The position numbers and the translations under genes were made by a program. From Escherichia phage vB_EcoM-S1P5QW, in the sequence record OL956808.1: a stretch of 64,000 bases of DNA; one strand, given 5' to 3'. The notes below the pieces were generated by a model. That model was not told where the DNA came from and did not search any database. It saw only the letters and a list, made by a program, of their open reading frames with translations. This document shows, one piece after another, positions 15,364 through 20,051 of this stretch (the first letter of the stretch is position 1; each line of letters starts with the position of its first letter).

Positions 15364-15848
15364 TTTTAAAAACTCGCTGGTATGATTTAGATGATGGGGA
15401 TGATGGCATTTCAGTTGATAGAGTTGACTGGAATGGCTGTTCCGAAGATATGAAAAATTTGCTGATTAGGGAGTTTAGAATGGGATATCAACCAGTTAAG
15501 CCATCTACTGCAACAGATGATAAATTCGTGTGTATTCATAATGGTCGCGCTAAATTAACGAACACTGATTGGTTCACAGATAAGATTATGATTCTGTGGT
15601 ATATTATTAGTTTTCCTGTGACATCATTTGTATTTTGCTTCTTTGGAGAAAGTCCAGTAGACAGAACGGGAGATTGGATTATTTTAACCATACTTGTTAA
15701 TATTTTTACAGCAGCAATATTATCTGGGATATGGTACACGTTCATTGAAATGCCATGGCGTTTACGTAGGCAGCAAAAGATTTTTGATGAAAAGAAATAT
15801 ACTCAAAATTTAAATAATTTTATCACCGAATGCAGGAAATTAAAATGA
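15360..15848 (+). CDS. small membrane protein (tandem family)
   Basis: 162 aa; hydrophobic segments, C-terminus NFITECRKLK. Confidence 0.5.
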   Translation: MILKTRWYDLDDGDDGISVDRVDWNGCSEDMKNLLIREFRMGYQPVKPSTATDDKFVCIHNGRAKLTNTDWFTDKIMILWYIISFPVTSFVFCFFGESPVDRTGDWIILTILVNIFTAAILSGIWYTFIEMPWRLRRQQKIFDEKKYTQNLNNFITECRKLK

Positions 15849-16285
15849 AAACATTATCAGCTGGTATTATCTTTATGACAGAAGATAAAGATTTATTCAT
15901 GGGACGGGTTACTGGTTCTCGTAAGCCTGGAATGATGGCACATCGCTGGGATATTCCAAAAGGCCGTGTAGAAAATTCTGATTTGAGCGCACTAGATGCA
16001 GCACGAAGAGAATGCTTAGAAGAGACCGGTTTTAGCAATTATAATCCAGACCTTCTAGAAGACCTAGGTGTATTTAAATATTCTAGTAATAAAGACTTAC
16101 AGCTGTTTTATTATACGATTCCAGTAGAGCATGAGATGTTTAGAAATTGCCATTGCGAGTCTTATTTTGAAAATAAAGATGGTGTTATGATTCCAGAGAT
16201 GGATGCTTTTGCTCTTATTCCTCGTACTCAGTGGCAATATGTGATGGGTCCTTCACTTTACCGAATAATGAACAGCCTCTTTTAA
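15845..16285 (+). CDS. nudE: Nudix hydrolase NudE
   Basis: Nudix box around DAARRECLEETGF; directly upstream of lysozyme e as in T4; start at ATG 15845 after AGGAAA. Confidence 0.8.
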   Translation: MKTLSAGIIFMTEDKDLFMGRVTGSRKPGMMAHRWDIPKGRVENSDLSALDAARRECLEETGFSNYNPDLLEDLGVFKYSSNKDLQLFYYTIPVEHEMFRNCHCESYFENKDGVMIPEMDAFALIPRTQWQYVMGPSLYRIMNSLF

Positions 16286-16816
<531 letters not shown>

Positions 16817-16910
16817 AGTTATTTACTTTCTCCTAGAATTGTGATAGTATATTCACAGTTACTTGAAGAGATAAATTATTAATTAAAATATTTACATTTA
16901 AAGGATACAC

Positions 16911-17384
16911 ATGAAAACATATCAAGAATTTATTACTGAAGCAGCTATTAATTCTCAAATTATTGCTGAATCTTTTACTGATCTTTTGAAATTTAAAAAA
17001 GGACAGAAAATCACTGCTGTACTGGATGATGGTACAGAAGTTGAGATGGATGTACAGGGATATAATTATGCAGTAGATGGAAAACTGTATAATAAATCTC
17101 ATGCTAAATTTGATTCATTTGACGACTTTGTTAATACAGTTGAAGATGAAAAAACTCGTCGATCCATTGCAACAGGTGATGCTAAGGTTCTTATGGCACA
17201 TGGTCATGAACGTATTCGCGCTAAACAGAATAAAATGGGTGAAGATAATTTTGCATTAGTTGGTTATCAATCTGGTAAACAAACTTATGGCTATCAACGT
17301 ACTGCTACCATGTATAACAAAAATGGTAAAATTGCCTTTGTGAATAGTAAAGGTTCTATTCAGTACGTTAAATCGTTCAAATAA
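16911..17384 (+). CDS. internal protein with capsid targeting sequence
   Basis: N-terminus MKTYQEFITEA matches T4 internal-protein CTS; 157 aa. Confidence 0.7.
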   Translation: MKTYQEFITEAAINSQIIAESFTDLLKFKKGQKITAVLDDGTEVEMDVQGYNYAVDGKLYNKSHAKFDSFDDFVNTVEDEKTRRSIATGDAKVLMAHGHERIRAKQNKMGEDNFALVGYQSGKQTYGYQRTATMYNKNGKIAFVNSKGSIQYVKSFK

Positions 17385-17537
17385 GCAAATAAGAAATATG
17401 GGAACAACCTGGACCTCATGATTCTGTGAGGGATTCCCGCCAACCTGTAATAAGGTCGAGCCCAAGTGCGGTAATGGGTAAATACAGAAATGGACAATTC
17501 ATGCGCCACGGAATGGCCCAAACCTAGAGAGAATAAA

Positions 17538-18077
17538 ATGAGAACATTTTTAACTGGTCCTTATCTATCCCTGATGAATGCTTTTACACACCATTCTGAT
17601 GCTAGAGTAGAAGAAATTTGTAAAAACGAATATATCCCGCCATTTGAAGAATTACTTAAACAGTATTGCACACTTCGACTAGATGGTGGACGTCAATCCG
17701 GTAAATCAATTGCTGTGACTAACTTTGCTGCTAATTGGTTGTATGATGGCGGAACAGTTATCGTTCTTTCTAATACTTCAGCTTACGCTAAAATTTCTGC
17801 AAATAACATTAAAAAGGAATTTTCGCGTTATTCTAATGATGATATACGTTTTCGTTTATTTACTGATTCTGTGCGCAGTTTTATTGGTAATAAAGGAAGC
17901 AAGTTCAGAGGTTTATCGCTTTCGCGAATTTTGTATATAATTGATGAGCCTGTCAAATCTCCTGATATGGATAAGATTTATAGTGTCCATATTGAGACTG
18001 TACACTACTGCTGTAATAGTAAATGTTGTATTGGTGGTATTACTCGTCCACAGTTTTTCGTAATCGGAATGCAATGA
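17538..18077 (+). CDS. small P-loop NTPase-like protein
   Basis: 179 aa from ATG 17538 (RBS GAGAGAA); Walker-A-like GGRQSGKS and Walker-B-like ILYIIDE. Confidence 0.5.
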   Translation: MRTFLTGPYLSLMNAFTHHSDARVEEICKNEYIPPFEELLKQYCTLRLDGGRQSGKSIAVTNFAANWLYDGGTVIVLSNTSAYAKISANNIKKEFSRYSNDDIRFRLFTDSVRSFIGNKGSKFRGLSLSRILYIIDEPVKSPDMDKIYSVHIETVHYCCNSKCCIGGITRPQFFVIGMQ

Positions 18078-18403
18078 TGACAGACACTCAGCTTTTCGAA
18101 TATCTTTATTTTTCGCCAAAAACTATTAAAAATAAATTGGTGAATCATTTTGAAATTTTGGCAAATAACAACGTCTTGAGCGAATTTTATCCTAAGCAAT
18201 ACAAATTACAAAAAGGCGTATTCAAAGGATGCAGAGTTTTGTGTACTGCTCCTAATGCACGGCTAATGAATAAAATTCCATATTTTACCATGGAATTTAT
18301 TGATGGTCCTTTTAAAGGACTAATCACCCAAAGTTTAATGGCATATGATTCTGAGCCATTTTTAATTAAAGAACAATCTTGGATAAATTTATTTTCTAAT
18401 TGA
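18074..18403 (+). CDS. hypothetical protein
   Basis: 109 aa; start ATG overlaps upstream stop (ATGATGA). Confidence 0.5.
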   Translation: MMTDTQLFEYLYFSPKTIKNKLVNHFEILANNNVLSEFYPKQYKLQKGVFKGCRVLCTAPNARLMNKIPYFTMEFIDGPFKGLITQSLMAYDSEPFLIKEQSWINLFSN

Positions 18404-18409
18404 GGTTAT

Positions 18410-18772
18410 ATGAAAGCATATCAAATTCTTGAAGGCACACATAAAGGTACTATTTATTTTGAAGATGGTATTCAAGCACGAATTATTGTCTCTAAAACCT
18501 TTAAAGAGGACTCTTTTGTAGACCCAGAAATTTTCTACGGTTTGCATGCCCGTGAAATTGAAATTGAGCCACAGCCTACAGTTAAAATTGAAGGTGGTCA
18601 ACACCTGAACGTTAACGTTCTGCGTCGTGAAACTCTGGAAGATGCAGTTAAGCATCCGGAAAAATATCCGCAGCTGACCATCCGTGTATCCGGTTATGCA
18701 GTTCGCTTTAACTCTCTGACTCCGGAACAGCAGCGCGACGTTATCGCTCGTACCTTTACTGAGAGTCTGTAA
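18410..18772 (+). CDS. autonomous glycyl radical cofactor (GrcA/YfiD-like; T4 Y06I homolog)
   Basis: C-terminal ~60 aa ([39 protein letters not shown]...) carry the glycyl-radical RVSGY motif and look essentially identical to E. coli GrcA. Confidence 0.85.
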
Positions 18773-18993
18773 TGGCAAAGATAATTATTGAAGGTTCTAA
18801 AGATGTGCTAAATGCTTTCGCAGAATGGTTTAGTAATTCAGGCGAACAGCAATTTAATGAAGCCTGGAATATGGGTGATATTGATGGAATTTATCCTACG
18901 ACAGAAATTTCTGTTCAAGGATATGGCATTCATGAACCTATTCGTTTAGTTGAATATGATTTATGCACTGGTGAGGAAGTCAAATATGATTGA
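18772..18993 (+). CDS. hypothetical protein
   Basis: 73-aa ORF, ATGA overlap with upstream gene. Confidence 0.5.
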   Translation: MAKIIIEGSKDVLNAFAEWFSNSGEQQFNEAWNMGDIDGIYPTTEISVQGYGIHEPIRLVEYDLCTGEEVKYD

Positions 18994-19252
18994 AGATATT
19001 AAAGGTTATAAGCCACATACCGACGAAAAAATCGGTAAAGTAAATGCTATTAAAGACGCTGAAGTTCGTTTAGGACTTATCTTTGATGCTTTATACGATG
19101 AATTTTGGGAAGCATTTGATAGCTGTGAAGATGATGAACTCGCGAAGAATTACGCCGAAAGCCTCGATCAGTTAACTATTGCTAAAACGAAACTCAAAGA
19201 AGCCAGTATGTGGGCTTGTCGTGCAGTGTTCCAACCAGAGGAAAAATATTAA
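18986..19252 (+). CDS. hypothetical protein in vs.4 position (possible Acb2-like anti-CBASS sponge)
   Basis: 88 aa; assignment by synteny only (second gene from regB, next to the GrcA-like vs.6 position). Confidence 0.4.
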
Positions 19253-19530
19253 TGGCTCAATTAAGCGCAGGGTTTGGTTATGAGTATTATACTGCCCCTC
19301 GTCGTGTATCTGCCGCTCCTAAGAAAATTCAAAGTCTTGATGACTTCCAGGAAGTAGTCCGTAAAGCTTTCCAGGACTATGCACGTTATCTTAAAGAAGA
19401 TTCACAGGACTGTCTTGAAGAAGATGAAATTGCTTACTATGAGCAACGTCTTGAACAGCTTAAAAACCTACATGAGGTCCGTGCAGAAGTTTCAAAGTCT
19501 ATGAATAAATTGATTAGATTTAAAGAATAA
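19252..19530 (+). CDS. hypothetical protein
   Basis: 92 aa from ATG 19252. Confidence 0.5.
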
Positions 19531-19589: not shown

Positions 19590-20051
19590 ATGACTATCAA
19601 TACAGAAGTTTTTATCCGTCGAAATAAGCTTCGTCGTCACTTTGAGTCGGAGTTTCGTCAAATTAACAATGAGATTCGTGAGGCATCAAAAGCAGCAGGG
19701 GTCTCATCGTTTCATCTAAAATATTCTCAGCATCTTCTTGATCGTGCAATTCAACGGGAGATTGATGAGACATATGTTTTTGAATTATTCCATAAAATAA
19801 AAGACCATGTTTTAGAAGTTAATGAATTCCTGAGTATGCCTCCGCGTCCTGACATTGACGAGGATTTTATTGATGGGGTTGAATATCGTCCTGGACGTTT
19901 AGAAATCACAGATGGAAATCTTTGGCTTGGATTTACGGTTTGTAAGCCTAATGAGAAGTTCAAAAACCCGTCACTTCAATGCAGGATGGCAATTATCAAC
20001 AATCGTCGTTTACCAGGAAAGGCTTCTAAAGCAGTAATTAAAACTCAATGA
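19590..20051 (+). CDS. regB: site-specific RNA endonuclease RegB
   Basis: 153 aa, N-terminus MTINTEVFIRRNKLRRHF as recalled for T4 RegB; RBS GAGGAGA. Confidence 0.85.
   Translation: MTINTEVFIRRNKLRRHFESEFRQINNEIREASKAAGVSSFHLKYSQHLLDRAIQREIDETYVFELFHKIKDHVLEVNEFLSMPPRPDIDEDFIDGVEYRPGRLEITDGNLWLGFTVCKPNEKFKNPSLQCRMAIINNRRLPGKASKAVIKTQ

Follow-up and report, generated by a model that had tools for sequence, protein, structure and literature searches.

Genomic context and identity of vs.8

We analyzed a 64,000-nucleotide stretch of the genome of Escherichia phage vB_EcoM-S1P5QW (OL956808.1), called the window below, around an open reading frame at 17538-18077 on the plus strand that encodes 179 amino acids plus a stop. 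Upstream lie the genes for NudE (15830-16285), T4 lysozyme e (16322-16816), and the internal protein ipIV (DUF7412, 16911-17384). The open reading frame is the first cistron of the vs.8-to-vs accessory gene string, in agreement with the first-pass annotation, which had placed it near the vs region. Downstream of it are vs.7 (18074-18403, plus strand), vs.6 (a glycyl-radical protein, 18410-18772), vs.4 (18986-19252, plus strand), vs.3 (19252-19530, plus strand), and the gene for RegB (19590-20051), with vs.1 (SLT domain), vs, and tk.4 (macro domain) following RegB in the same region. Judged by their sequences, these neighbors mark a T4-like phage. The product of vs.4 matches the Pfam family Acb2_Tad1_hairpin (E = 9e-20) and is Acb2 (PMC12657218), and vs.3 occupies the position of T4 TadIV-1, a sponge protein that takes up the signal of type IV Thoeris (PMC13243611).

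In the window, ipIV directly follows lysozyme e (16816-16911). In the close relatives teqhad and NBEco003, denV separates these two genes, and T4 has ipIII-ipII-denV, which points to regional plasticity.

The open reading frame is very probably the T4-like accessory gene vs.8, which encodes a P-loop protein derived from a terminase core and equal to T4 vs.8. The window protein is 98% identical to T4 vs.8, with three substitutions, and residues 3-179 match positions 2-177 of the 177-position profile of PHROG 1488 (‘unknown function’) with an E value of 4.1e-79. The gene name vs.8 is given in the records of phages AR1, RB32, and RB14; at the DNA level the window is 99% identical to RB18 and 98.8% identical to AR1. 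The gene, its ATPase-like nature, its homology to terminase, and its link to the immune receptor Avs2 are already published.

Many automatic gene callers choose an alternative in-frame ATG at 17490, which gives a version of 195-196 amino acids; one cluster of such long-start calls (P0001) has 1051 member sequences. We consider 17538 the better start, because the distant homologs from other genera all begin at an MK or MR that matches 17538 and because 17490 lies inside a conserved RNA element. The 16-codon extension at 17490-17537 falls within this non-coding element and has no conservation at the protein level. Some records also label vs.8 as ‘endoribonuclease’ or RegB, which is annotation drift, as the genuine RegB is the separate gene at 19590-20051. 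The record of phage teqhad puts the same ‘endoribonuclease’ label on vs.7, vs.3, and vs.1; despite it, none of these proteins, nor vs.8, is RegB-like.

The vs.8 stop codon overlaps the vs.7 start codon in the sequence ATGA (18074-18077), and by this arrangement vs.7 is translationally coupled to vs.8. The vs.7 protein has 109 amino acids, belongs to PHROG 2049, and has no Pfam match. A vs.7 homolog follows vs.8 in most Tevenvirinae loci, the Gelderlandvirus type being the exception, and vs.7 is a candidate partner protein of vs.8. Between the upstream gene and vs.8 we found neither a sigma-70 consensus promoter nor an intrinsic terminator, in the window or in T4. Previous work expressed vs.3 to vs.8 each from ‘the promoter of vs.8’ and reported only vs.3 to impair type IV Thoeris (PMC13243611).

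A conserved structured RNA element precedes vs.8

The gap of 153 nt that separates the stop codon of ipIV (17384) from the start of vs.8 has 48% G+C, compared to ~35% for the genome. At the DNA level it is far more conserved than the gene behind it: the gap shares long identical stretches with Klebsiella phage K65, whereas the vs.8 proteins of the two phages are ~37% identical. Most of the gap is taken up by a structured RNA element of ~120 nt (17400-17517, plus strand). At its 5′ end, an outer hairpin P0 (GGGAA 17400-17404 with UUCCC 17434-17438) encloses an inner hairpin P1 (CCUCA 17414-17418 with UGAGG 17427-17431). A closing helix Pa is formed by GCCA 17439-17442 with U17475 and GGU 17477-17479, leaving the invariant G17476 bulged. 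Pa is followed on its 5′ side by hairpin H2 (ACCU-GUAAUA-AGGU, 17443-17456) and by the core at 17457-17476, in which the stretch at 17457-17474 is invariant (CGAGCCCAAGUGCGGUAA; consensus CNAGCCMAAGUGCGGUAA). A 3′ hairpin (GCCA-CGGAA-UGGC, 17505-17517) completes the element; all of these parts are read on the plus strand.

Helix Pa is maintained in 30 of the 31 unique copies, through about a dozen sequence combinations, and all five of its pairs show double-sided changes. In a set of 18 distinct cores, pairing holds for 89.5% of cells, compared to 71% in shuffles (a level as high as in the real cores was attained by 0 of 500) and 22-46% when the partner strand is displaced, with the caveat that Pa was derived by eye from the same sequences that were used in these pairing tests. 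The G-U pairs hold only if the element is read from the same strand as vs.8. The 5′ hairpin also covaries between copies (GGGAA/UUCCC versus GGGAG/CUCCC, CACAU-GACG-AUGUG versus CUACG-GACG-CGUAG, and UGAAUG/CAUUCA versus UGAGUG/CACUCA), and RNAalifold independently yields the 5′ hairpin, H2, and the 3′ hairpin. Folding of the single sequence was not significant (z = 0.57), nor was a pseudoknot when its longest helix was compared to shuffles. A metagenome bait scan recovered 2 true copies among 120 matches, the rest being almost all chance, and was thus underpowered for an out-of-sample test of Pa.

By blastn, the element is present in 1116 records of enterobacterial phages, including the unrelated, non-T4-like Vequintavirus nimi and the 45-kb phage Ivi, and we found two further copies on viral contigs of 46.7 and 70.4 kb. 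A search of 5,426 E. coli genomes and two scans of Rfam 15 gave no match to the element, and none of 185,579 bacterial and archaeal species genomes contains an exact match to its core. With a covariance model, we detected a single copy in the window (66.9 bits) and two in K65, of which one lies ahead of an ip gene and the other ahead of vs.8 (L006 2864-2909 and 3386-3431). The K65 copy before vs.8 is a recombinant of two sequence types in which Pa is broken. CHI14-type phages carry a divergent second copy in tandem (L040 9022-9067 and 9136-9179), and at another locus (L022) the element lies directly upstream of an ip gene. The element thus behaves like a movable intergenic cassette. It is also separable from vs.8, because the non-T4-like carriers have no vs.8-like open reading frame near it and the distant vs.8 orthologs lack it. 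An intrinsic terminator follows the element in Ivi and in a second locus (L028), and a promoter follows it in nimi; in these three settings it looks like a stand-alone small RNA. We regard the element as a candidate mRNA leader or processed small RNA. Large screens such as PMC10690425 could include it among their unnamed candidates; the main text of that paper makes no mention of it. The element is probably more novel than our findings on vs.8 itself and may be the more valuable lead.

The vs.8 protein is predicted to fold as a single ASCE ATPase domain

An AlphaFold2 model of vs.8, built from an alignment of 64 sequences, has a pLDDT of 86.9 and a pTM of 0.86. Its elements follow in the order helix 6-29, strand 45-48, P-loop, helix 54-69, strands 73-78 and 107-111, Walker B strand 131-136, and last strand 172-176, a β-α-β order with the P-loop after strand 1. 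Searching the PDB with Foldseek returned only ASCE ATPase domains, namely the helicase domains of SLFN11, DSH9, RecD, and UvsW, as well as KaiC and the ATPase of the P74-26 large terminase (TerL). The probabilities of these matches are 0.9-1.0, but their TM-scores (TMq) are modest at 0.36-0.51, and the helicase and KaiC domains rank above the terminases. Among viral models, Foldseek matched many uncharacterized proteins of 140-180 amino acids from other large lytic phages.

The position of Walker A after the first strand, a Walker B followed by glutamate, and these fold matches make vs.8, in a confident model, a P-loop NTPase of the ASCE division. The first-pass annotation had proposed a small P-loop NTPase, too small for a helicase, and had tied this proposal to structure prediction; the model and the Foldseek matches both returned a P-loop fold, and a single domain of 179 amino acids is indeed too small for a helicase. 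On the model’s evidence, the fold by itself indicates one RecA-like ATPase domain, without pointing to terminase in particular. Since Foldseek places helicases and KaiC higher, with modest TM-scores, the assignment to terminase rests on profile comparisons and on the published homology (PMC13601566).

Profile comparisons relate vs.8 to the ATPase core of the large terminase

We scanned the 64 family members against Pfam. Terminase_6N is matched by 41 of them (E ≤ 0.1) and gives the best E value of any family (2.4e-6), while AAA_14 is matched by 54 members (best E 1.6e-4) and AAA_30 by 36 (best E 3.6e-5). The TerL family PHROG 2 (phrog_2) also matches vs.8, with an E value of 1e-5. To compare the two families directly, we aligned the 64 vs.8 proteins with the aligned ATPase regions of 63 genuine T4-type TerL sequences using hhalign, which gave 96% probability and an E value of 4e-9 over 116 columns.

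This alignment superposes Walker A, an ‘RG’ motif, and Walker B. The vs.8 P-loop GGRQSGKS is paired with SRQLGKT of gp17, the segment TVIVLSNTSAYA of vs.8 with AVGILAHKGSMSA of TerL, and KFRGLSLSRILYIIDEP of vs.8 with AVRGNSF--AMIYIDEC of TerL. Near the nucleotide, each position that is invariant in TerL within the aligned region has an invariant counterpart in vs.8: R-Q-x-G-K-[ST] of TerL corresponds to R52, Q53, G55, K56, and [ST]57; the R-G that precedes the catalytic glutamate by 11 (11-13) residues corresponds to R124 and G125; and D-E corresponds to [D/E]136 and E137. The adenine-binding Q-motif (Y-Q, whose Q is invariant in the 63 TerL sequences) has no invariant equivalent in vs.8, and the local alignment begins after it. 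Subdomain II, with the lid, and the C-terminal RNase H-like nuclease domain are absent as well, as vs.8 ends at the strand after Walker B and matches no nuclease family.

The relationship is a remote one. The window protein alone scores 12.7 bits against Terminase_6N, below the gathering cutoff of 22, and pairwise BLASTP against a gp17 ortholog is insignificant (E = 0.18). Single-sequence and profile searches of the PDB also gave only insignificant matches (the coupling protein TcpA at E = 0.07 and P74-26 TerL at E = 2); NCBIfam gave none, and PADLOC only HerA (E = 0.027). Based on the family-level alignments, vs.8 is a remote paralog of the terminase ATPase core (N-subdomain I) and not itself a terminase. 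It cannot be a packaging motor on its own because it lacks the Q-motif, the lid and subdomain II, and the nuclease domain.

Conservation and loss of the catalytic residues

The motifs GGRQSGKS and LYIIDE, on which the first-pass annotation had based its reading, belong to a real gene, and their key residues do not vary. Across the 64 homologs, down to ~31% identity, D49, G51, R52, Q53, G55, K56, E137, and P138 are invariant, and residue 136 is aspartate or glutamate in every one. Walker A occupies residues 50-57 (17685-17708, plus strand) and the Walker B stretch LYIIDEP residues 132-138 (17931-17951, plus strand), of which LYIIDE spans residues 132-137 (17931-17948), with E137 at the position of the catalytic glutamate. 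R124-G125 (17907-17912, plus strand), 11 residues before this glutamate, matches the invariant ‘RG’ of TerL and is a candidate trans arginine finger.

Conservation extends to both ends of the protein. In the N-terminal helix (residues 6-29, 17553-17624, plus strand), Y9, M13, A15, and F16 are invariant or almost so; this helix is family-specific, with no TerL counterpart aligned to it. In the C-terminal β-strand QFFVIGMQ (18051-18074, plus strand), with which the protein ends, G177 and Q179 are invariant. By topology this strand would stand in the place of the TerL C-motif or helicase motif III, although global hhalign gave no convincing alignment to the TerL C-motif. The cysteine cluster HYCCNSKCC (residues 156-164, 18003-18029, plus strand), to which the first-pass annotation had also pointed, is present, but it does not hold up as a functional feature: it is lineage-specific, is absent as a conserved feature in other genera, and lies in the loop that is the lowest-confidence part of the model (block pLDDT 57). 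A below-threshold match of this loop to the conotoxin family Toxin_19 (E = 0.003) is a composition artifact.

A distant sub-branch of seven proteins (P0110, P0117, P0120, P0122, P0129, P0139, and P0141) has RRSGH[ST] in place of GK[ST], which exchanges the P-loop lysine for histidine, and VDCA or VDGA in place of the Walker B DE, which removes the catalytic glutamate. These proteins keep the architecture and end in F-x-E rather than G-x-Q. Their sequences suggest that they are probably pseudo-ATPases, and since they have lost both the P-loop lysine and the Walker B glutamate, hydrolysis may be non-essential to the role of the family.

The gene is under purifying selection but dispensable

Using tblastn, we found vs.8 in 1009 records of phages that infect Escherichia, Shigella, Klebsiella, Enterobacter, Yersinia, Salmonella, Citrobacter, and Serratia. 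Searching 1.84 billion representatives exhaustively with a profile gave only 71 clusters at E ≤ 1e-3, all of them small proteins (66-259 amino acids) with no large ATPase among them. The gene keeps its place between the e/ip/denV genes and vs.7-vs.6...regB-vs.1-vs, and the slot of ip/denV genes, a gap of 140-215 nt, vs.8, and vs.7 is conserved across five Tevenvirinae genera and is seen in Klebsiella T4-likes. In the distant T4-like phage MW358927, a divergent ortholog (P0106) with an intact P-loop sits in the same slot.

Pairwise dN/dS values between vs.8 and its orthologs from Tequatrovirus, Dhakavirus, Winklervirus, and Gelderlandvirus are 0.07-0.27, and vs.8 is thus under purifying selection. 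The gene is nonetheless dispensable, because two independent T2 genome records, NC_054931 (L001 4001-4536) and PV648363 (L043 1043-1578), have it only as a pseudogene with the same frameshift. Phages Lutter and SV76 carry it in fragments. T2 can thus serve in experiments as a natural vs.8 knockout.

A model for vs.8 function

Evans et al. (Nat Commun 2026, PMC13601566) showed that co-expression of T4 vs.8 and the terminase sensor EcAvs2 is toxic. [quoted passage not shown] The first-pass annotation had listed the protein as one of unknown function, which holds only in part now that T4 vs.8 has been reported as a terminase-ATPase-like activator of EcAvs2. Given 98% identity, Avs2 activation would carry over from T4 vs.8 to the window protein.

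We propose that vs.8 is a single-domain paralog of the T4-type large-terminase ATPase core that works as a nucleotide-dependent protein switch. The protein would bind ATP, and the retained catalytic glutamate and P-loop arginine suggest that it hydrolyzes it as well; judged from its residues, vs.8 is an active ATPase with somewhat better than even probability. In the ring ATPases of large terminases, as known from P74-26 and phi29, the ‘RG’ arginine acts in trans between subunits. We regard R124 as a candidate for the corresponding trans arginine finger of vs.8, and because an arginine of this type is kept, hydrolysis would probably require a homo-oligomer or a partner. A protein switch is the most economical reading because vs.8 lacks the parts that handle nucleic acid, and the protein would probably act in host takeover or counter-defense rather than on DNA. 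Its likeness to terminase would then be a liability that Avs2 senses. Taken as a whole, this combination of terminase-core paralog, ATP-binding switch, and Avs2 liability is the explanation that we favor, with fair though far from complete confidence.

A counter-defense role as such is a tentative idea that we think is more probably wrong than right. It is guilt by association, since among vs.3 to vs.8 only vs.3 has been reported to impair type IV Thoeris. More speculative still, and quite improbable in our estimate, is a version in which vs.8 is dedicated to counter-defense by terminase mimicry. The protein would appear ahead of the genuine terminase and, depending on ATP, would engage or deplete terminase sensors (Upx, further variants of Avs1-3, or an unknown sensor), EcAvs2 would have turned this decoy into a trigger, and the covarying RNA upstream would be a leader that controls the operon.

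The main rival to the switch model holds that only the shape of vs.8 matters, perhaps with ATP bound: the protein would occupy terminase binders, for instance as a decoy for immune receptors or a host factor, and ATP turnover would be irrelevant. EcAvs2 does recognize vs.8 like a terminase ATPase domain (PMC13601566), the neighboring genes encode anti-defense sponges, and the relatives with RRSGH[ST] and VDCA still keep the architecture. However, the invariance of the catalytic glutamate, the P-loop arginine and lysine, and the ‘RG’ arginine over 64 sequences of the vs.8 clade is hard to square with shape alone, and EcAvs2 is activated rather than blocked by vs.8, so that we consider this rival unlikely. 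Being homologous to the ATPase core of gp17 down to the inter-subunit arginine, vs.8 could also be a modulator of packaging that binds the small terminase gp16 or gp17, or forms mixed rings, and so restrains or times the terminase. Against this, vs.8 is located with non-essential accessory genes and not with the late packaging genes, has neither subdomain II nor the N-terminal regions of TerL, and is dispensable in T2, all of which make this role distinctly improbable.

The two remaining alternatives are weaker. Decay of a functionless terminase duplicate would account for the broken genes in T2, Lutter, and SV76 and for the narrow taxonomic range, but it is very unlikely in view of the low dN/dS values, the full-length gene in ~1000 genomes across genera, and the invariant catalytic residues. 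The nucleotide kinase that the first-pass annotation had offered as one reading, here extended to nucleoside kinases, must be given up almost entirely. Small size, a P-loop, and marginal CobU matches in 4 of the 64 members (E = 0.038) are what speaks for it. All significant fold and profile matches are instead to ASCE ATPases of the terminase, helicase, RecA, and KaiC types and not to the kinase-GTPase class, with no kinase among the best 50 Foldseek matches. A glutamate is conserved after the Walker B aspartate, a LID or NMP-binding segment is absent, and the phage encodes tk and other kinases elsewhere.

Only very few proteins other than terminases are known to trigger an immune receptor that senses terminase; vs.8 is among them, and phages hold it under purifying selection despite this cost. 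Its native job would show why T4-like phages have a truncated terminase ATPase in addition to the complete one, and whether mimicry of terminase serves counter-defense. Beyond the published work (PMC13601566), our analysis adds the conservation of the complete catalytic set with its inter-subunit arginine, a distant branch that has lost this set, the natural knockout in T2, the synteny into distant T4-likes, and the coupling to vs.7; overall these additions are modest.

Comparison with known systems

The closest Foldseek matches to vs.8 are the first domains of SF1/SF2 helicases (RecD, UvsW, SLFN11), in line with the AAA_30 matches in 36 of the 64 members. However, vs.8 has one RecA-like domain instead of two in tandem, and of the helicase motifs it has only I, Ia-like, and II. 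With the T4-type large terminase (gp17, Terminase_6N) it shares the R-Q-x-G-K-[ST] P-loop, the ‘RG’ arginine, the Walker B D-E, and a similar spacing of these motifs. It differs in being one third the size, without a match to the Q-motif and without subdomain II/lid or nuclease, and in being encoded among non-essential accessory genes rather than late packaging genes.

Ksap1 and Ksap2, which are also non-terminase activators of Avs2, resemble vs.8 as small, lineage-restricted phage proteins with a terminase-ATPase-like core of sheet and helices. They come from unrelated lineages (Dhillonvirus and Stephanstirmvirinae), and the likeness is one of published description. The nearest known protein is T4 vs.8 itself (PHROG 1488; PMC13601566), which has the same gene position and the same motifs at 98% identity, and from which the window protein differs in nothing material.
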